In this document: positions 50 through 42,842 of the stretch, piece after piece
How the letters are laid out: each line of letters starts with the position of its first letter
Position numbering within the stretch: position 1 is the first letter of the stretch
Source: a virus
Virus genome (UHGV): UHGV-0138423
Direction: 5' to 3' (one strand)
DNA: 42,842 bases
Notes under the pieces: generated by a model
Databases searched by the model: none
What the model saw: only the letters and a program-made list of their open reading frames with translations
What the model was told of the DNA's origin: nothing
Position numbers and translations under genes: made by a program

Positions 50-706
50 TTATTGCAATTGCACAAGAGTCAGTTCTCCCCCAAAGACAGCACCGGTATC
101 AATATAATGCAGGTTGCCAATATCCACGCGATGGCGCAAAGGTGTATGACCAAACCAGAAATGATCAGCACCTGCAATTCCCTGCCCTTTTTGGCGTTCA
201 CCTAATCGCGAGCGGCTCCACAAGACCTGATGCAAATCGACGTCCTTTTGCCATTCATAGACATCATCTGGATAATCGGCATGAGCAATAACATGTTTGC
301 CGGTGCGACTGTGTAATTCAAGAATAAAGGGCAAATGCTGACATTTTTCCAGCGCCGTTTTCGCTTGTTTCTGTTGATTATCTGCCAGCGCAATAAACCA
401 GTCGCCGCCATTTATCAACCATAAAGACATCTGCCGGGATGCCAGCGCATCCATCGCCATCTGTTCATGATTGCCTCTTACCGCACGAACCCAATGTTGT
501 TCCAGTAACTGCAGGCAACGTAAACTTTGCGGCCCACGATCGATAACGTCTCCCACTGAGATAAGTAAATCTCGCCACGGATCAAAACGACAATGCCATA
601 ATTTGCGGCGCAACTGCTCAAGACAACCGTGTATATCGCCTGAAAGCCAGATATGTCGCCATTGATGACCCGCAATTCTCTGATAAACGGGCGCAGGCTG
701 TTTCAT
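50..706 (-). CDS. prpA: Serine/threonine protein phosphatase 1 (host chromosomal gene)
   Basis: Translation begins MKQPAPVYQRIAGHQWRHIWLSGDIHGCLEQ and carries metallophosphatase motifs (GDxxDRG, GNHE); matches E. coli PrpA as I recall it. ATG at 704-706 preferred over the TTG at 707-709 used by the ORF track. Confidence 0.85.
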   Translation of the reverse strand: MKQPAPVYQRIAGHQWRHIWLSGDIHGCLEQLRRKLWHCRFDPWRDLLISVGDVIDRGPQSLRCLQLLEQHWVRAVRGNHEQMAMDALASRQMSLWLINGGDWFIALADNQQKQAKTALEKCQHLPFILELHSRTGKHVIAHADYPDDVYEWQKDVDLHQVLWSRSRLGERQKGQGIAGADHFWFGHTPLRHRVDIGNLHYIDTGAVFGGELTLVQLQ

Positions 707-840
707 CAATATTTTCCTCCCGCGCTAAAGATCACATAATCTTAACAAGAATGTTAAAAAACGCTGGACTCAGACAGTAGAGTGTGTGTTATGGTTGACT
801 ATAAAGTCAGCGAAGGGAATGCTTCTGGCTTTTAACAGAT

Positions 841-866
841 AAAAAGAGACCGAACACGATTCCTGT
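841..866 (-). ncRNA. sdsR: Probable 3'-terminal remnant (terminator arm plus U-run) of the host sRNA SdsR/RyeB; marks the host side of the prophage junction
   Basis: Minus-strand reading ...CAGGAAUCGUGUUCGGUCUCUUUUU closely matches the 3' end of E. coli SdsR as I remember it (...ACAGGAAUCGUAUUCGGUCUCUUUUU). Sequence further 5' (plus 867 onward) shows no resemblance to SdsR. prpA is the known chromosomal neighbour of sdsR/ryeA. Confidence 0.4.
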
Positions 867-1523
867 TTTCGTCAACAAACAACAAAATCTTTTAGAATTA
901 ATGTGTTAAATAAATTTATGCTCATCTTTTAATCCCTAACACATACCATTACATATTAATACATTCAATTAGTTACCATTTTTTTCGAGTTTTTTAGAGA
1001 AATTTTCGGGAATATTTCAGATCAATCCATGCATACACAAGCAATTCCTGTATTGAATAATTCCGTAGCAATTATGTAAAATCACCTCCGGCTGATTTTC
1101 ATTCAAACTCGCGCTATCGAACGTCCATCAGCCAGCCGTGGCACGTTCTTGCATACGACGTGCTACGGTTTCATTTATCTCCGACTGGAAACTTCTTATA
1201 CAAAGTCGATACGCCAACATCATAGATGATCGCCTACTGGTGGAACTTATATATAAAGCAATAATGACCAAACTTTACAGGCGGAGAAGAGCCGCTTCTT
1301 TAAACTTTCCTCAATAACAGCATTACTTGTATAATGCATCAGTTCACAATAGAAAAATGCATACTGCTATGTTGCCCGGATCATCACGGGCATTTTTTAT
1401 CCACCCTACCACGACATATTCATACGCTGCCACACAGAACATTTCAATCCACCAGTATGTTTCCGGTGTTTCACTCTCAGCAACAAACAACAGGAGAACG
1501 CATAATCGCAGCATAAAATGCAT

Positions 1524-1554
1524 GATGTAAGGAGCTTATATCGCTCCTTACATT
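1524..1554 (-). terminator. Hairpin immediately downstream of the tail fiber gene (possible bidirectional terminator)
   Basis: Inverted repeat GTAAGGAGC-(7 nt)-GCTCCTTAC, extendable to 11-12 bp, flanked by A/T-rich sequence on both sides. Confidence 0.5.
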
Positions 1555-1562
1555 AATATTAT

Positions 1563-3986
1563 TCACTGGCCAGACAGCGATGCCAGCATGAAATAATGCA
1601 GCTCATCATTCCTTACAGACATTATTTCACCAGCCTCCCTGACCAGCTTGCGCTCTCCGGTATCGTATTCTTCCATTGTAAGGAGTCCGTCAGGACCAAG
1701 CTCCATACGAGTCCCGTAAACCACTTCATATTCTGCCGGATATTCATCACGACACAAAATACCGTAATCAAAAGCGTCCAGCCCTTCCTCAGAGAAGACC
1801 TTCTGTACGTCCTGAGCAATCACTCCTACATGCCATCTGGCTGCGTTCCCTTTGCTGGACACTGCATCCCTGAAACGGAACCGACAGATATACCCGAGCA
1901 GCTTTCTGGCAACCCTTTTTTCTGCATCCGACAGAATTGTTTCGTCCTGTTTATGAGTCCGGTCTGATGTACTGATACTTCCCGTAGCTGAATAAACCTG
2001 TGCGGGTCGCCATGAGGCATAACCGATCGAATACGTATTATCTGTATAAGGGCGGAGATTTCCTGATGAATCTATGCGCCATCTCTTTTCTCCTCCTGTG
2101 GCATTTGCATCCTGATTCGTTGCAAAATCAATCACTGTCGCTGACCTGAACACAGATGAACCACCGCCAATTACCAGCGTGTTATTCCCCTCTGATGCCT
2201 GTTGGTCAACTACCAGTATTTTATCCTGATTTTTACCTGAACCACTTTTCGAGGCAGCGATAATACGATTAAACTGATCCTCACCATCGCTCTTTTGTGC
2301 GATGGTGATAACATTGGACCAGATTGCCTCTCTTTGTCGCTGAAAACCATATTCTCCGCTGTCTGTAGTGACAGCTTTATATTTTATTCCACCTTCAGCT
2401 GACTCCTGCGTTATATAGAATGTCTGGTTATTAGCATTCTTGATGAACACATAATTGTCAGCAGGAATGTCATTTCCACTCAGATCTTTAATCGGTGTCG
2501 TGGTTGTATGCAGACAAAACCATTTCTGACTCACAGAACGCATATATGCCAGAATTTCAGACAGGGATGTGAATACCGTCCCCAACACCGGGTTTACCAA
2601 CCCCTGGGCACTACGGGGAAATGTTCCAATACTGGCATGAGACACATCAAACCCCGTGTACAACCAGGCTGCCTGACGAAAATCAATAGCATCTCTGCCA
2701 GTACTGAACTCTTTCATCAGAACAATTCCTTTCTGATAAGCCTGTGGTAACCCACGCTCCAGAAAGATATAAAGCGAATATATACTGCCGCCGTCGTCAG
2801 AAATACAAATTCCTTCGTTCTCAATGCGCGAAGGTGTAAAACCCTGCCTGGTAAGCACATCTATCATTTTTTGGGGATGAAGAATGGATTCCTGCTGCTT
2901 TACTCCATCCGGAGAAAAGACCTTAACCCCCTGAAACTGGTTAAATCCGGCTGATGCCCCGGTATTAAAATAGCCACCATAAGAACAGGCAATATAATCG
3001 TCTCCCACAGCAATTCCCTGACGTTTTGTGAAGCGTCTTGCATAGCTGTCTGTGCTTTCCGTGATATATCCGGAATCATGCAACGGTAATGTGAATGTCC
3101 CTGTCCGACGAAACTGAAAATCATACACCGCAAATACTGTGCGGGTGATCAGGCCTCCCACTTCCGGCGCTGACTGTTCAACCACCCAGCGGTTTTTACG
3201 ATAGCTGAACTGGTTGTAAACACCGACATCATGTTCATCAATTAACGGCAATACTGAACCAGAAATTGCCCCATCAAGCGAAAACTGTTTCAGTAATCCA
3301 TTTTCTCCTGACATGAACAAACGTAATCCACCGTAATCCGTTGTCACCACAAGGCCTTCGCTGACAACGCCACGACCTCCATTATCGACATAATAATATC
3401 CCTCATATTCGCCGGATGTTGTGTACTGAACTATAACGTTCCGTGTCTGCTTTGGCTCAACGGTATAACTCAGATAGATTTTTTCTCCTGTCACCACAAA
3501 TCCCTGTGGATACATATATTCCGCACCAGACTGAGCAGCCAGCACCGTATCGTAGTCCGGGAATAATAACGGCAATTCCATTAAGACACTACGGGAATGG
3601 TTAGTGTACAGATTGTTCAATGAACCAGCTTTTACATCCTGTAACCCCAGATTTTCAAGAGCGCGTTCTACCGTGCCATCCGATTTGATATCGCCAAACG
3701 GATTCTTGCGGCTCAGGTATTCAACAGCAAACCCCGATCCCAGCAATTCAACAAAACCGGGCAGATCACCATTATCAAGCACATCCCGTTGCGTTTTATC
3801 ACTTACAAACTGGGCCAGAGCTGCAGCAATAAAGCTGGCCTGCCGAATAACCTTATTGACTTGCGCACTGGATGCTTTACCTGCTGTAAATCCGGATAAA
3901 AGCGCAGGCAACGCTTCCCATTCCTCCTGCGACATAACATTGGCATTTTTACCCGTTGCGAATGCTTTAAAGTCATTTTTTGCCAT
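1563..3986 (-). CDS. Tail fiber / tailspike protein with C-terminal intramolecular chaperone (peptidase S74-like) domain
   Basis: 807 codons from the ATG at 3984-3986 (MAKNDFKAF...), overlapping the upstream stop as TGATG. C-terminal ~110 aa (..RVARKLLGYICRFRFRD...HVGVIAQDVQKVFSEEGLDAFDYGIL...) resembles the self-cleaving chaperone domain of endosialidase-type tail fibers. Last gene of the tail operon. Confidence 0.75.
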   Translation of the reverse strand: MAKNDFKAFATGKNANVMSQEEWEALPALLSGFTAGKASSAQVNKVIRQASFIAAALAQFVSDKTQRDVLDNGDLPGFVELLGSGFAVEYLSRKNPFGDIKSDGTVERALENLGLQDVKAGSLNNLYTNHSRSVLMELPLLFPDYDTVLAAQSGAEYMYPQGFVVTGEKIYLSYTVEPKQTRNVIVQYTTSGEYEGYYYVDNGGRGVVSEGLVVTTDYGGLRLFMSGENGLLKQFSLDGAISGSVLPLIDEHDVGVYNQFSYRKNRWVVEQSAPEVGGLITRTVFAVYDFQFRRTGTFTLPLHDSGYITESTDSYARRFTKRQGIAVGDDYIACSYGGYFNTGASAGFNQFQGVKVFSPDGVKQQESILHPQKMIDVLTRQGFTPSRIENEGICISDDGGSIYSLYIFLERGLPQAYQKGIVLMKEFSTGRDAIDFRQAAWLYTGFDVSHASIGTFPRSAQGLVNPVLGTVFTSLSEILAYMRSVSQKWFCLHTTTTPIKDLSGNDIPADNYVFIKNANNQTFYITQESAEGGIKYKAVTTDSGEYGFQRQREAIWSNVITIAQKSDGEDQFNRIIAASKSGSGKNQDKILVVDQQASEGNNTLVIGGGSSVFRSATVIDFATNQDANATGGEKRWRIDSSGNLRPYTDNTYSIGYASWRPAQVYSATGSISTSDRTHKQDETILSDAEKRVARKLLGYICRFRFRDAVSSKGNAARWHVGVIAQDVQKVFSEEGLDAFDYGILCRDEYPAEYEVVYGTRMELGPDGLLTMEEYDTGERKLVREAGEIMSVRNDELHYFMLASLSGQ

Positions 3987-4666
3987 CAGAGTAATACTCC
4001 CCATGCCCCTACATCAAAACCACTGATAAATTCGTTATCCATATCAAAACCAAAAAATTTTGAACCTTCCGATGGGGTTTCCACCGAAGGTGTTTCTATG
4101 CCACCCGCCCACACCCCGGCGGCTTTTACTGTGAGATATCCCTGTTTAATTACAGCAATTAACTCACGCGATACATCTGAAATATCAGTATCAGGAAAGA
4201 CCCAGACCGATATCGTCATGTCCTGGTTATCGACAATCTGCATTCGCAGCCCGGATCCTGCTGTCGCCGTGTCAAGAATTGCCGGAAGCGAATCATTCCG
4301 TCCGTCCCAGTTATTAATCGCAATCTTCGCTTTAAGGATGACACGATAAGTTTCATCGCTGAGGTACATGTATCCGGAATCAGGATCATATGGCCCCTGC
4401 CATACCCCCTGATCATATCCAAGCCCGTCGGTATCCCAGCTGAAATAGACACCTGAGATAGACTGGCTGACAACACGGCTACGTCCGATCCACAATCCCA
4501 GAATGTCAAGTTGCACACCAACCGCAGAGTCAATATCAAATGCAGTAATCAGCCCTCTGGTGGCAGCCGCAACATCAATAAGCGGCCGGGTCATCAGATC
4601 AACATGCGCAAGAAATTTAGGTTTGGTGGCGTGGTAGTTCGTGATTAGTTCGGTGTATTTGCTCAT
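3986..4666 (-). CDS. Baseplate/tail protein (gpI-like position, between baseplate J and tail fiber)
   Basis: 226-codon ORF, translationally coupled to the J-like gene; position equals P2 gpI / Mu gp48. Family assignment from synteny only. Confidence 0.5.
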   Translation of the reverse strand: MSKYTELITNYHATKPKFLAHVDLMTRPLIDVAAATRGLITAFDIDSAVGVQLDILGLWIGRSRVVSQSISGVYFSWDTDGLGYDQGVWQGPYDPDSGYMYLSDETYRVILKAKIAINNWDGRNDSLPAILDTATAGSGLRMQIVDNQDMTISVWVFPDTDISDVSRELIAVIKQGYLTVKAAGVWAGGIETPSVETPSEGSKFFGFDMDNEFISGFDVGAWGVLL

Positions 4667-25022: not shown

Positions 25023-25604
25023 TTAAAGCTGCATCAGCCTTTCCACCAGTTTATCTCTGCGAACAACAAACCAACCATTGGCTCTCGCCAGTTCCAGCCA
25101 TGACTCAAGGGAAATAACAATATCATCATCCCGCAACTGAATTGTGGAAACAGTGACACCGCCTCGCTGATAACAGAGAACTCGCGTGTCGTAACTTTTC
25201 TGGCATGAAACTGACGCTGACGGATCCTTTTGTCTGAAATAGCAGTCTTCCAGCTTTTCGAACACATCCCACGCCTGATCAGTTTCGAGCATTTTGGCAT
25301 GGCGGGCTGCTCCGCGTTCTGTCCAGAGGATGAGGGAGCGGGCTTTCGGGGAAATTTGTAACCCTCTTAAAGATGGTTGCAAATTTTGTGAGTAGTTTAA
25401 AGCTACCCGCAAATTTTTCAGGGCATCACCAGCCACTTTGAAAAAATGCTTTCCTTCAATAAAGCGCTCAGCATTTCTGGCGTAGTTATTTTGAATGTTC
25501 TTAACTTCAGCACCGTACAACTGCGCCAAAAGTTCGGTGGTAATAACAGGAATCTGGTTATGGGTGATCGGAGAGAGAGTTTCAACAGAAATTTGAGTTG
25601 TCAT
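25023..25604 (-). CDS. KilA-N/ORF6N-domain protein (antirepressor-like), late-region moron
   Basis: 193 aa; N-terminal half (..ITTELLAQLYGAEVKNIQNNYARNAERFIEGKHFFKVAG...LWTERGAARHAKMLETDQAW..) matches the ORF6N DNA-binding domain signature; C-terminal ~80 aa unassigned; has its own downstream terminator. Confidence 0.65.
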   Translation of the reverse strand: MTTQISVETLSPITHNQIPVITTELLAQLYGAEVKNIQNNYARNAERFIEGKHFFKVAGDALKNLRVALNYSQNLQPSLRGLQISPKARSLILWTERGAARHAKMLETDQAWDVFEKLEDCYFRQKDPSASVSCQKSYDTRVLCYQRGGVTVSTIQLRDDDIVISLESWLELARANGWFVVRRDKLVERLMQL

Positions 25605-25764
25605 AATGACGCCCTCTGGTGGTTTCTAAACCATCACCACCGTCAGGTTCCTAATCATCGGGTGGTGAGACGTACAGGGTTAGGAACTACCGGGAAACCA
25701 ACCGGCGAGCTTTTCAGCTCCCCCATACGCCCCACCATAATTCAGATGTGCGCGTGCATACGAC

Positions 25765-25789
25765 AATAAAAAACACGCTCGCGGCGTGT
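25765..25789 (-). terminator. tR'-like intrinsic terminator downstream of the late promoter
   Basis: Minus-strand RNA ACACGC-CGCGA-GCGUGU followed by UUUUUUAUU, about 60-80 nt downstream of the predicted pR' start. Confidence 0.55.
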
Positions 25790-25851
25790 GTCTGTCGCGG
25801 TCTCTATCCGGGGTTCCTAATCCCGACGCCAGATTTTGCTGGCGCGTGAGG

Positions 25852-25881
25852 AATATAGCCCCGAATAACAGATTGAGTCAA
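25852..25881 (-). promoter_or_regulatory. pR'-like late promoter overlapping the Q stop codon
   Basis: Minus strand: -35 TTGACT (plus 25876-25881), 18 nt spacer, -10 TATATT (plus 25852-25857); same position relative to Q as lambda pR'. Confidence 0.45.
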
Positions 25882-27877: not shown

Positions 27878-28033
27878 TTACTCCTCAGGTTCGTAAGCTG
27901 TGAAGACAGCGACCTCCGTCTGGCCGGTTCGGAGTCGTACCTCGCAGAGGTCTTTCCTCGTTACCAGTGCCGTCACTATGACGGTTAAACAGATGACGAT
28001 CAGGGCGATTAACATCGCCTTTTGCTGCTTCAT
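27878..28033 (-). CDS. hok: Hok/Gef-family type I toxin
   Basis: 51 aa from the internal ATG: MKQQKAMLIALIVICLTVIVTALVTRKDLCEVRLRTGQTEVAVFTAYEPEE, essentially identical to E. coli HokD/RelF as I recall it. Confidence 0.8.
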   Translation of the reverse strand: MKQQKAMLIALIVICLTVIVTALVTRKDLCEVRLRTGQTEVAVFTAYEPEE

Positions 28034-28292
28034 AGCCTGCTTCTCCTTGCCTTTCGGCACGTAAGAGGCTAACCTACGTGTGTAGAGCATAGATATGGCC
28101 TCAGATTAATGTTAAGCGTCTTGCCGGACGCGTAATGTTAACTGGGGCTTTTCTCTATCTGCCTTTTGGTGTTCATGCCTGAGACAGATAGCCTCAAGCA
28201 CCCGCAGTTATTCTACTTAACTAAGATTTCCCCGCAAACCGTTTTTGTCCGGCACAGTAAATATCCAACTAAACCAATGGCGTTCGCTGTAT

Positions 28293-40986: not shown

Positions 40987-41181
40987 ATGCGGTATGAAAA
41001 AGTCAAACCATGTCCGTTTTGTGGTTGTCCATCAGTAACGGTGAAAGCCATTTCAGGATATTACCGCGCAAAGTGTAACGGATGCGAATCCCGAACTGGC
41101 TATAGTGGAAGTGAAAAAGAAGCACTCGAAAGATGGAATAAACGAACTACTGGAAATAATAATGGAGGTGTTCATGTATAA
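40987..41181 (+). CDS. ralR: Restriction alleviation protein (Lar/RalR family)
   Basis: 64 aa: MRYEKVKPCPFCGCPSVTVKAISGYYRAKCNGCESRTGYSGSEKEALERWNKRTTGNNNGGVHV; Cys4 zinc-ribbon; matches Rac RalR as I recall it. Confidence 0.8.
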   Translation: MRYEKVKPCPFCGCPSVTVKAISGYYRAKCNGCESRTGYSGSEKEALERWNKRTTGNNNGGVHV

Positions 41182-41362
41182 AATTACTGCCACTATTGAA
41201 AAGGAAGGTGGCACTCCTACTAACTGGACAAGGTACTCAAAAACAAAATTAACCAAATCAGAATGCGAAAAAATGCTCTCAGGTAAAAAAGAAGCAGGCG
41301 TTTCCAGAGAGCAGAAAGTAAAGCTGATAAATTTTAATTGCGAGAAGCTTCTGTCCTCGTGA
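41174..41362 (+). CDS. ydaC: YdaC-like small protein (DUF1187)
   Basis: 62 aa from ATG after GGAGG (MYKITATIEKEGGTPTNWTRYSK...); position between ralR and xis as in Rac. Confidence 0.5.
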   Translation: MYKITATIEKEGGTPTNWTRYSKTKLTKSECEKMLSGKKEAGVSREQKVKLINFNCEKLLSS

Positions 41363-41462: not shown

Positions 41463-41750
41463 ATGGCAATGAATCTTGTGACACTAAAAACGTGGGGAAA
41501 ACTCAGATATCCAGATAACCCACCATCAATATCAACGCTGAGACGATGGGCAAGGAATGGAAACATTTATCCTGCACCTGAACTACACGGGAGGAGTTAC
41601 AGGGTGGTTCCGGAGGCTTTCTATATCAACCCAAATAAGGTTGATACCGATATAACACACCATCAACCTAATGGGCGACAAGGGAGAGACAGTCCGTTAC
41701 TGGAGAAGTTAAAACATGCAGCGGAAAAAATACGATCCCAATTTGCCTAA
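41463..41750 (+). CDS. xis: Excisionase-like DNA-binding protein
   Basis: 95 aa ORF immediately upstream of and overlapping the integrase gene. Confidence 0.5.
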   Translation: MAMNLVTLKTWGKLRYPDNPPSISTLRRWARNGNIYPAPELHGRSYRVVPEAFYINPNKVDTDITHHQPNGRQGRDSPLLEKLKHAAEKIRSQFA

Positions 41751-42792
41751 AAACTTAACATATCGAAGGAGGGACAAAGCATATTACTGGCGCAACCCTC
41801 TGACGAAAGAAGAATTTACACTAGGTAAAATTTCAAGGAGAGATGCAGTAGCGCAGGCAATTGAAGCAAATCATTATATATACAAAAACTACTCTCCTGC
41901 TGCCTTAATTGAAAAGCTTAAAGGGTTCGACTCATTTACTATGGCAGACTGGATTGAACGTTACAAAACGATTCTTATAAGGAGAAAAGTGTCCAGAAAT
42001 ACTTATAAAATTCGGGTAAATCAACTGGAGACAATAAAAGAAAAATTGGGAGAGATTTTACTGACAGAAATAACCACTCGCCATATTGCCGAGTTTCTTG
42101 ATTTGTGGATTGAAGGAGGGAAAAACACAATGGCAGGATCAATGCGTTCTGTGTTGTCTGATATGTTTCGCGAGGCCATTGTTGAAGGACGTATATCTCA
42201 AAATCCAGTAACGCCAACAAGAGCACCGAAAATAGTAGTTACAAGAGAACGACTGAAACTAAAGACATACAACTGCATCAGGGAGGCAGCAGATCAACTT
42301 CCGGCATGGTTCCCATTAGCTATGGATTTAGCCCTTGTAACAGGACAACGTCGCGAAGACATAACGAATATGCGGTTCAGTGATATTTATGATGATCGTC
42401 TCCACATCAGGCAAATTAAGACAGGAATGATGATTGCTATCCCCCTGTCACTCAGCCTTCCTGTCGCTGGTCTACGGCTTGGTACAGTAGTTGAACGGTG
42501 CCGCCTGGTAAGCCGGGGAGATTATCTAATCAGTGCCGGAATTAGAAAAAACAGCCCTGACGGCAGCATTCACCCGGATGGCCTGACAAAAAAATTTGTC
42601 GCAGCCAGAAAATTAACAGGTATCCAGTTCAGTGAAAACCCACCAACTTTTCACGAGATCAGAAGTCTGGCTGGACGATTGTACAAAGAAACATGTGGAG
42701 AAGAATTTGCTCAGCGTCTACTTGGCCACACATCGGAGAAGACAACAAAAATGTATCTTGATGAGAGAGAAAAAACGTACTTACTGCTCTGA
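41716..42792 (+). CDS. int: Tyrosine integrase (lambda Int family)
   Basis: 358 aa; N-terminal arm-binding-like region (..NLTYRRRDKAYYWRNPLTKEEFTLG..) and C-terminal catalytic motifs (..LVTGQRREDI.., ..HEIRSLAGRLY.., ..LLGHTSEKTTKMYLDER..) with the conserved R, H-x-x-R and Y. Confidence 0.9.
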   Translation: MQRKKYDPNLPKNLTYRRRDKAYYWRNPLTKEEFTLGKISRRDAVAQAIEANHYIYKNYSPAALIEKLKGFDSFTMADWIERYKTILIRRKVSRNTYKIRVNQLETIKEKLGEILLTEITTRHIAEFLDLWIEGGKNTMAGSMRSVLSDMFREAIVEGRISQNPVTPTRAPKIVVTRERLKLKTYNCIREAADQLPAWFPLAMDLALVTGQRREDITNMRFSDIYDDRLHIRQIKTGMMIAIPLSLSLPVAGLRLGTVVERCRLVSRGDYLISAGIRKNSPDGSIHPDGLTKKFVAARKLTGIQFSENPPTFHEIRSLAGRLYKETCGEEFAQRLLGHTSEKTTKMYLDEREKTYLLL

Positions 42793-42842
42793 TTTTAACG
42801 TAAATGGATTGTTAAATGTATTTTGGTTGTGATATAACCAAA

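Follow-up and report, generated by a model that had tools for sequence, protein, structure and literature searches.

The window, a 42,842-nt stretch of DNA recorded as UHGV virus genome UHGV-0138423, opens with an intact host gene and the last nucleotides of a second one, and continues as phage DNA to its right end, where an excisionase gene overlaps an integrase gene. These features, with strain C25 (NZ_CP127314.1) as a near-identical reference, are:

50–706, minus strand: pphA (prpA), intact host serine/threonine phosphatase gene (ORF 50–709; Pfam Metallophos, E = 1.3e-14).
841–866, minus strand: displaced, host-derived 3′ fragment of sdsR (ryeB), comprising U-run, terminator 3′ arm and loop (26/26 identity to K-12).
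872–42842, no strand assigned: prophage body, about 42.1 kb from core to core (ORF list, C25 annotation, Rfam RNA genes).
41463–41750, plus strand: xis, excisionase gene (Pfam PF07825 Exc, E = 6.5e-14; annotated as excisionase in C25).
41716–42792, plus strand: int, lambda-family tyrosine integrase gene (Pfam PF00589, PF22022, PF09003).

Positions 1–871, which hold pphA and the intergenic region, were matched by all 5426 complete E. coli genomes searched, 55 of them extending further, and pphA is annotated at the equivalent position in K-12 and C25. BLAST similarity to uninterrupted E. coli chromosomes ends at 871. Past 866, one mismatch (T at 867, A in the uninterrupted site) is followed by TTCG and then by unrelated AT-rich DNA, in which no ORF longer than 67 aa occurs between the junction and the tail-fibre gene (1563–4004). 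Downstream of the pphA upstream region, the plus strand of the window reads cttttaacagatAAAAAGAGACCGAACACGATTCCTGTtttcgtcaacaaac, and the K-12 counterpart (L001 2329–2380) reads cttttaacagatAAAAAGAGACCGAACACGATTCCTGTattcggtccaggg.

The minus strand of 841–866 is identical at 26 of 26 positions to the 3′ end of E. coli K-12 sdsR (L001 2341–2366). Its plus-strand letters are AAAAAGAGACCGAACACGATTCCTGT, and it takes in the U-run together with the terminator's 3′ arm, all 7 nt of the loop, and 2 nt belonging to the 5′ arm. The original prediction had rightly recognized the end of sdsR here, at the position expected after prpA/pphA; the one mismatch it reported does not exist relative to K-12, whose form at the variable site is GUGUUCGG, whereas GUAUUCGG, the form assumed in that prediction, is that of the Rfam consensus and of the phage. 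The pattern occurs once in the window, with 0 matches expected from 100 shuffles.

A full SdsR_RyeB gene is an RNA of about 100 nt that scores above 38 bits and possesses a 5′ hairpin, a seed region and a terminator. In K-12 it scores 114 bits (L001 2341–2440, minus strand), with SraC_RyeA starting at the same place. Nowhere in the window do SdsR or RyeA reach the Rfam gathering score: a permissive search returned a sub-threshold SdsR match (RF00111) at 841–919 on the minus strand (20.4 bits against a cut-off of 38), in which only the terminal ~30 nt are aligned, and a sub-threshold partial RyeA match at 837–925 (24.8 bits against 37). Such partial scores are expected from a 3′ fragment, and by the full-length standard 841–866 is thus a fragment and not a gene. 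Its identity is settled by genomic context, with pphA directly to the left, K-12 collinearity up to 871, and yebY following the second junction in C25. Folding of the remnant itself (841–866) gave no stable hairpin, at −5.3 kcal/mol no better than shuffled sequence (z = 0.29), and the idea that it serves as a terminator shielding pphA from prophage transcription was dropped on this result. The fold of the phage attachment site is likewise no better than shuffled sequence (z = 0.37). The window contains no tRNA or tmRNA gene, and a tRNA-type site was rejected for this reason.

Where the upstream part of the small RNA had been claimed to be replaced by a prophage, a complete-looking prophage does follow, with xis and int at 41463–42792. 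Its genes run in the order tail fibre, baseplate/tail, head, terminase, lysis, late and early regulation, replication, recET, ralR/RalA, xis and int, and we regard it as a temperate, lambda-like phage of mosaic lambdoid/Rac-like composition. The early region is shared with the Rac prophage of K-12 (recE, recT, ralR/RalA, kilR and regulators of the ydaS/ydaT type), whereas the two have different integrases, att sites and structural genes; Rac lies at ttcA in K-12.

Several further features of the prophage body deserve mention. The tail-fibre gene (1563–4004, minus strand) is one 813-aa ORF with a C-terminal Peptidase_S74 chaperone domain; in the C25 annotation the same region (L002 21564–23987) is divided into a shorter gene and a pseudogene fragment, which could be an annotation artefact or the effect of a few indels. 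The ORF-poor region 872–1560 contains terminator-like hairpins at 1373–1398 (plus strand) and 1523–1555 (both strands), the latter bidirectional and directly past the tail-fibre stop codon. Among phage records, the left phage end has no close match except a 65-nt element common to Stx phages: 1099–1163 matches, at 91% identity over 65 nt, non-coding DNA lying close to the ends of 41 records of Stx-converting and related phages. This shared element (1099–1193) overlaps a sub-threshold CssrB-like terminal hairpin (1137–1193, minus strand, 31.8 bits against a cut-off of 76), and may be a module boundary or a small RNA. At 25658–25858 on the minus strand, Rfam matches a C4 antisense RNA (67 bits) together with the a1/b1 target of that RNA (47.8 bits), as well as an Hfq-binding RNA resembling IsrK (69.4 bits), just upstream of an antirepressor-like ORF with an ORF6N domain (25023–25604, minus strand); the cluster resembles the c4-ant immunity module of P1/P7 and the isrK-anrP module of Gifsy-1. 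Two type I toxin-antitoxin RNA loci are also present, both on the minus strand: RalA (41180–41358, 212 bits), antisense to ralR, and Sok (28028–28203, 117 bits), adjoining a hokD-type gene.

At the right end, xis overlaps int from upstream, and the window stops 50 nt after the int stop codon. The Int catalytic domain (PF00589, E = 9.3e-17) marks the protein as a tyrosine recombinase, a central domain is present too, the arm-binding domain (PF09003) scores 28.1 bits against a cut-off of 22, and the alignment to lambda Int structures extends along the whole protein (E = 1.5e-72). Six catalytic residues are kept (equivalents of R212, K235, H308, R311, H333 and Y342, by comparison with 5j0n_E). 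Protein identity is about 41% to HK022 Int, 74% to the Int of Salmonella phage ZC-S1_prp and 98% to that encoded by phage record PP818812.1. In PP818812.1, an uninterrupted attP lies directly downstream of int and reads tacaattAAAAAAAGACCGAATACGATTCCTGTtttcgtcaacaaaca; ZC-S1_prp has the same core, AAAAAGAGACCGAATACGATTCCTGT. A P-arm block, TGTGATATAACC-AAAAAGACCGGAATACAGAAATTCGAG-AAATTTCG-GGAATTTCG-GG in ZC-S1_prp, is conserved in both phages, strongly so in ZC-S1_prp while the adjacent DNA has diverged.

With PP818812.1 providing attP, K-12 providing attB, the window attL and strain C25 attR, all four sites of an integration reaction can be compared, and the attachment features of the window are assigned as:

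841–871, no strand assigned: common region of attL, in which attP resembles attB at 28 of 31 positions (four-way comparison; end of BLAST similarity).
856–866, no strand assigned: crossover interval ACGATTCCTGT, the same in all four att sites and bounded by C/T at 855 and A/T at 867.
867–1163, plus strand: phage P′ arm of attL (840–1163 is 86% identical to the attP flank of PP818812.1, with similarity ending at 1163).
42793–42842, plus strand: start of the phage P arm (the window tail corresponds to L003 4384–4443, with the attR core at L003 4540).

The second junction was located in C25, which aligned to the whole window in one piece at 99.946% identity (42,850 columns, 15 mismatches, 3 gaps). 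Beyond the window end by 97 nt, C25 reads tacaattAAAAAAAGACCGAATACGATTCCTGTattcggtccaggg, followed by a complete sdsR/ryeA locus and then yebY-copD-yobA. The copy at attR is full length, with Rfam scores of 118 bits for SdsR and 180 bits for RyeA, and strain CFS3292 gave the same attR result (SdsR 118 bits). The proposed check for an intact sdsR rebuilt at the other end is positive in C25, as is that for a second junction beyond the integrase with a direct repeat: the core repeat of attL and C25 attR is 26 nt long with 2 differences and contains an identical 11-bp block. An intact sdsR elsewhere in the genome had also been named as evidence against the integration, a condition that needs rewording; such a copy exists, namely at attR, but it is what integration of this kind is expected to produce and refutes nothing.

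Within the window, a search allowing up to 3 mismatches found no second core copy, which places attR beyond the window end. Judged by the near-identical genomes and not by the source genome, the attR core would lie outside the window, 97 nt after 42842. The right flank past 42842 is accordingly expected to read ...AAAGACCGGAATACAGAAATTCGAG...TACAATTAAAAAAAGACCGAATACGATTCCTGTATTCGGTCCAGGG, then the sdsR body and yebY, and the comparison predicts a right prophage boundary 97–107 nt past the window end; the left boundary is fixed at 866/867.

The four-way comparison displays a reciprocal swap, in which attL combines the bacterial left with the phage right and attR the phage left with the bacterial right, as read from diagnostic positions 846, 855, 867 and 872. 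In attL, G846 and C855 on the left are host-type, and T867 and T872 on the right are phage-type; in attR, the left carries phage-type A and T, and the right host-type A and G. The exchange therefore took place between 855 and 867. The earlier placement of the att core at about 860–870 proved essentially right, with the crossover at 856–866 and similarity to attB ending at 871.

This interval takes in the SdsR terminator loop and 2 bp more to either side of it. That terminator folds into an 11-bp stem with a 7-nt loop, AGGAAUC, which on the plus strand is GATTCCT at 858–864, flanked by the inverted stem arms CGAA(C/T)AC and GT(A/T)TTCG. Lambda Int acts on a 7-bp overlap between inverted core-type sites. 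By analogy, the terminator loop GATTCCT (858–864) is probably the 7-bp overlap region, and the stem arms CGAA(C/T)AC and GT(A/T)TTCG are probably the core-type Int sites. Since a 7-bp overlap is narrower than this 11-bp interval, the cleavage points can be placed only to within 856–866. Counted from the SdsR 3′ end (841), the crossover lies at a distance of 16–26 nt; in RyeA it occupies about +54 to +65. It thus falls at the insertion hot spot as defined in PMC7380047, with an att site in the last ~23 bp of ryeB, inside ryeA.

At attR, the restored sdsR differs from the host gene by two base changes in its last 26 nt, turning a U·G pair of the stem into U-A and the tail UCUUUUU into UUUUUUU. 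The predicted folds of the hybrid and wild-type terminators both have −15.8 kcal/mol, and by its sequence sdsR would be kept in the lysogen, not lost. Two deviating copies were encountered. The attR of E. coli ECMA0423 (L009 5985–6015) has a host-type C at the equivalent of 855 plus an extra A, reflecting either a polymorphic attP or assembly errors, and the Shigella flexneri copy (L008 5205–5260) carries several indels in the sdsR terminator and body; together these variants point to polymorphic attP, sdsR decay in Shigella, or assembly errors.

The phage arms can be delimited by the same comparisons. Another E. coli prophage also matches the P′ arm only up to 1163. PP818812.1 resembles the window only in int-xis-recET, in some of the early genes and in the att arms (840–1163), while the structural genes differ; the integration module therefore moves among mosaic phages, and its P′ boundary lies near 1163. 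Candidate arm-type Int sites in the P′ arm are TTTCGAG at 983–989 and ATTTTCGGG at 1002–1010, accompanied by a conserved block, ATTCAATTAGTTA; the conserved P′ blocks were seen in alignment to the Salmonella attP. The motif A(A/T)TT(T)CG(A/G)G, chosen post hoc, occurs three times in the P arm and one to two times in the P′ arm, all in one orientation. Counted with the same post hoc caveat, it takes up four distinct places of attP within about 230 nt, as against nine in 85.7 kb (both strands), and it is partly conserved in Salmonella; its copies are candidates for arm-type Int sites.

Between the int stop codon and the core (42821–42842 to L003 4466) lies an inverted repeat, TTTTGGTT-gtgatat-AACCAAAA, running into AAAAAGACCGGAATACAGAAATTCG, which resembles the att core AAAAAGACCGAATACGATTCCTGTATTCG in degenerate form. 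This block is kept in the Salmonella relative despite an Int identity of 74%, and could be a binding site or a relic of an older core. A separate observation concerns PP818812.1, which is named 'Actinobacillus phage vB_Apl-pPE4' and carries the host label Actinobacillus pleuropneumoniae. Its attP matches the sdsR terminator of E. coli and Salmonella, and its Rac-like genes (recET, kil, dicA, ydaT) are 95–97% identical to those of the E. coli prophage in the window; the label looks doubtful, and the record may stem from an induced E. coli prophage or a contaminant.

Occupancy of the site was estimated from the 5426 complete E. coli genomes. The pphA-sdsR-yebY arrangement is uninterrupted, leaving attB intact, in 5189 and split in 237 (4.4%), and uninterrupted attP sites are present in PP818812.1 and OK490361.1. 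The integrase was found in 233 of the 5426 genomes, including O55:H7 and O111 strains, and 227 carry a contiguous int 3′ end, P arm, attR and sdsR. These counts show that nearly all of the occupancy stems from one integrase family, which essentially always sits here. A scan of one genome per species with the P-arm block yielded two loci, in E. coli and Shigella flexneri, both adjoining sdsR; the query was an exact 22-mer, too strict for other genera.

Taken together, we hold with high confidence that 841–871 is the attL of a lambda-like prophage of about 42.1 kb that was integrated by its Int into the Rho-independent terminator of sdsR. The phage attP carries a near-copy of the last ~30 bp of sdsR, and exchange occurred within 856–866, most probably across the loop GATTCCT, with the stem arms acting as inverted core-type Int sites, a logic shared with phage integration into tRNA stem-loops. 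The original host sdsR 3′ end has been left behind as a 26-nt orphan beside pphA, while the sdsR body, to judge by C25, acquires the phage-supplied 3′ end at attR, just past int and 97 nt beyond the window end. The same insertion point also lies inside the antisense gene ryeA (sraC).

Other readings of the locus fare less well. Were the 26-nt match a chance resemblance, or a generic terminator unrelated to sdsR, the SdsR score below the gathering threshold (20.4 against 38 bits) would find a ready explanation; yet the match is exact over 26 nt with 0 expected by chance, the 840 nt next to it, with pphA and the intergenic region, are collinear in every E. coli genome, and the similarity stops inside the sdsR terminator. 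Collinearity with K-12 up to 871 had already refuted this reading, to which we give practically no credence. Scarcely more credible is an illegitimate insertion-deletion or rearrangement that destroyed sdsR, leaving the 26 nt as a scar in a strain without functional sdsR. The window, with its 3′ fragment and no second core copy, looks as such an event would, but 97 nt beyond the window, a 99.946%-identical genome carries sdsR/ryeA intact, along with yebY, the same int-sdsR junction recurs in 227 genomes, and a phage record contains the matching attP.

A further reading accepts the attL and holds that the prophage has lost excision and become a fixed, defective island. Many prophages in enterobacteria are defective, and the tail-fibre region of C25 is annotated as split or pseudogene, but we consider this reading unlikely. 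Neither int nor xis is truncated and the catalytic residues are conserved, all of the usual modules are there (terminase to tail fibre, lysis, replication and repressor regions), the tail-fibre ORF of the window forms one 813-aa frame, the two att sites show no damage, and a phage with the same integration module has been deposited as a phage genome. From its sequence, this prophage can probably still excise.

Integration at this type of site has precedents. In PMC7380047, phage PhiW104 is described as using the last 23 bp of ryeB for its integration in Salmonella, with altered levels of ryeA and ryeB as a result, and the same paper cites Balbontin, Figueroa-Bossi, Casadesus and Bossi (2008, J Bacteriol 190:4075) for ryeA/ryeB as an insertion hot spot in Salmonella enterica. 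The original prediction's mention of an sdsR/ryeA hot spot agrees with that work, as relayed in PMC7380047 and PMC3603311. Fröhlich et al. noted that the gene flanking the sdsR 3′ end varies among enterobacteria whereas yebY is constant (PMC3333887). Moreover, a 2025 study described a Yersinia prophage, with an att site of 27 bp, that is flanked by an integrase gene and a gene of the YebY family (PMC12653942) and may use the same sdsR target. To judge from the description of PhiW104, the two systems share a target in the last ~23–26 bp of ryeB inside ryeA, a phage-supplied 3′ end and an altered 5′ part of ryeA; they differ in host, E. coli in the present case, and in the phage, here a mosaic whose early region is Rac-like and whose structural module is of the contractile-tail type, the comparison to PhiW104 being one by description (PMC7380047).

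Phages that integrate into the 3′ ends of tRNA and tmRNA genes (P4, P22 and Sp prophages; Williams 2002, as cited in PMC3603311) likewise use a symmetric stem-loop as core. There too attP duplicates the 3′ end of the gene so that it is restored, and int lies beside the restored gene; the target here is instead the terminator of a regulatory small RNA and not a tRNA arm. Integration into the ryeB 3′ end is already known from Salmonella, and it is a tRNA-type strategy applied to a small RNA terminator.

Lambda and HK022 share with the present system a three-domain Int with its catalytic residues, an xis overlapping int, an attP directly downstream of int and repeated motifs on both arms, here candidate arm-type sites. 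The differences are a protein identity of about 41% and another core, and the arm sites, overlap and host-factor sites are here predicted ones. Furthermore, lambda attB lies between gal and bio, whereas the target here is a small RNA terminator. The present analysis adds a base-resolution map of four att sites for the E. coli version and an occupancy estimate of 4.4% of complete E. coli genomes, nearly all owing to one integrase family, and it predicts explicitly that in lysogens neither ryeA nor pphA is still connected to its promoter.

This last prediction follows from the layout of the locus. RyeA is encoded on the opposite strand, so restoring sdsR would still cut RyeA from its promoter. 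The window retains two pieces of the ryeA locus:

790–795, plus strand: sigma-70 −10 hexamer TATGGT of the ryeA promoter, replaced by primer RyeA-p3 (PMC6610125).
802–866, plus strand: 5′ fragment of RyeA/SraC, about its first 64 nt (5′ end ±2 nt, by primer 3RACE_RyeAF).

Primer RyeA-p3, TGTGTGT-CTCGAG-TGACTATAAAG, swaps exactly the ryeA −10 hexamer and thereby creates a promoter mutant (PMC6610125), and primer 3RACE_RyeAF, AAAGTCAGCGAAGG..., from the same study places the RyeA 5′ end at about 802–803 of the window (AAAGTCAGCG...). From this arrangement, the ryeA promoter and the first ~64 nt would stay at attL, aimed into the prophage, while the remainder of RyeA at attR would be preceded by phage DNA. 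The plus-strand hairpins at 1373–1398 and 1523–1555 would end transcripts from the orphan ryeA promoter. In the P arm, just upstream of the RyeA remainder, one promoter-like site was found (TTTGCA-16-TACAAT, L003 4496–4523) against a shuffled mean of 1.0; with the count at chance level, the P arm as source of a RyeA promoter was set aside and kept as a hypothesis only. On the other side of the junction, pphA mRNA derives from read-through of the sdsR promoter, which requires sigma-S, across the sdsR terminator (PMC6610125), and the 42-kb prophage would cut pphA off from this read-through promoter, PsdsR. In Salmonella, lysogeny by PhiW104 at the equivalent site was accompanied by lower ryeA and higher ryeB expression, according to PMC7380047.

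We tentatively propose that in about 4% of E. coli genomes, O55:H7 and O111 lineages among them, a node of host regulation is rewired by lysogeny through the sdsR-site integrase family, which would act jointly on RyeA, pphA, PsdsR and the terminator, a possibility that we consider somewhat doubtful as a whole. If it holds, RyeA, the antagonist of SdsR, would lose its sigma-70 promoter and 5′ end, the orphan ryeA promoter would drive a chimeric transcript into the prophage, and pphA would be deprived of read-through from the sigma-S sdsR promoter. Read-through from PsdsR would in turn run antisense into int and xis, coupling prophage stability to stationary phase. Under the same condition, the phage terminator, whose stem is perfect and whose tail has 7 U, may be tuned so as to limit read-through, and could alter the 3′ end and the Hfq properties of SdsR. 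The predicted disconnection of ryeA and pphA from their promoters in lysogens could matter for work on SdsR/RyeA or PphA in strains other than K-12.
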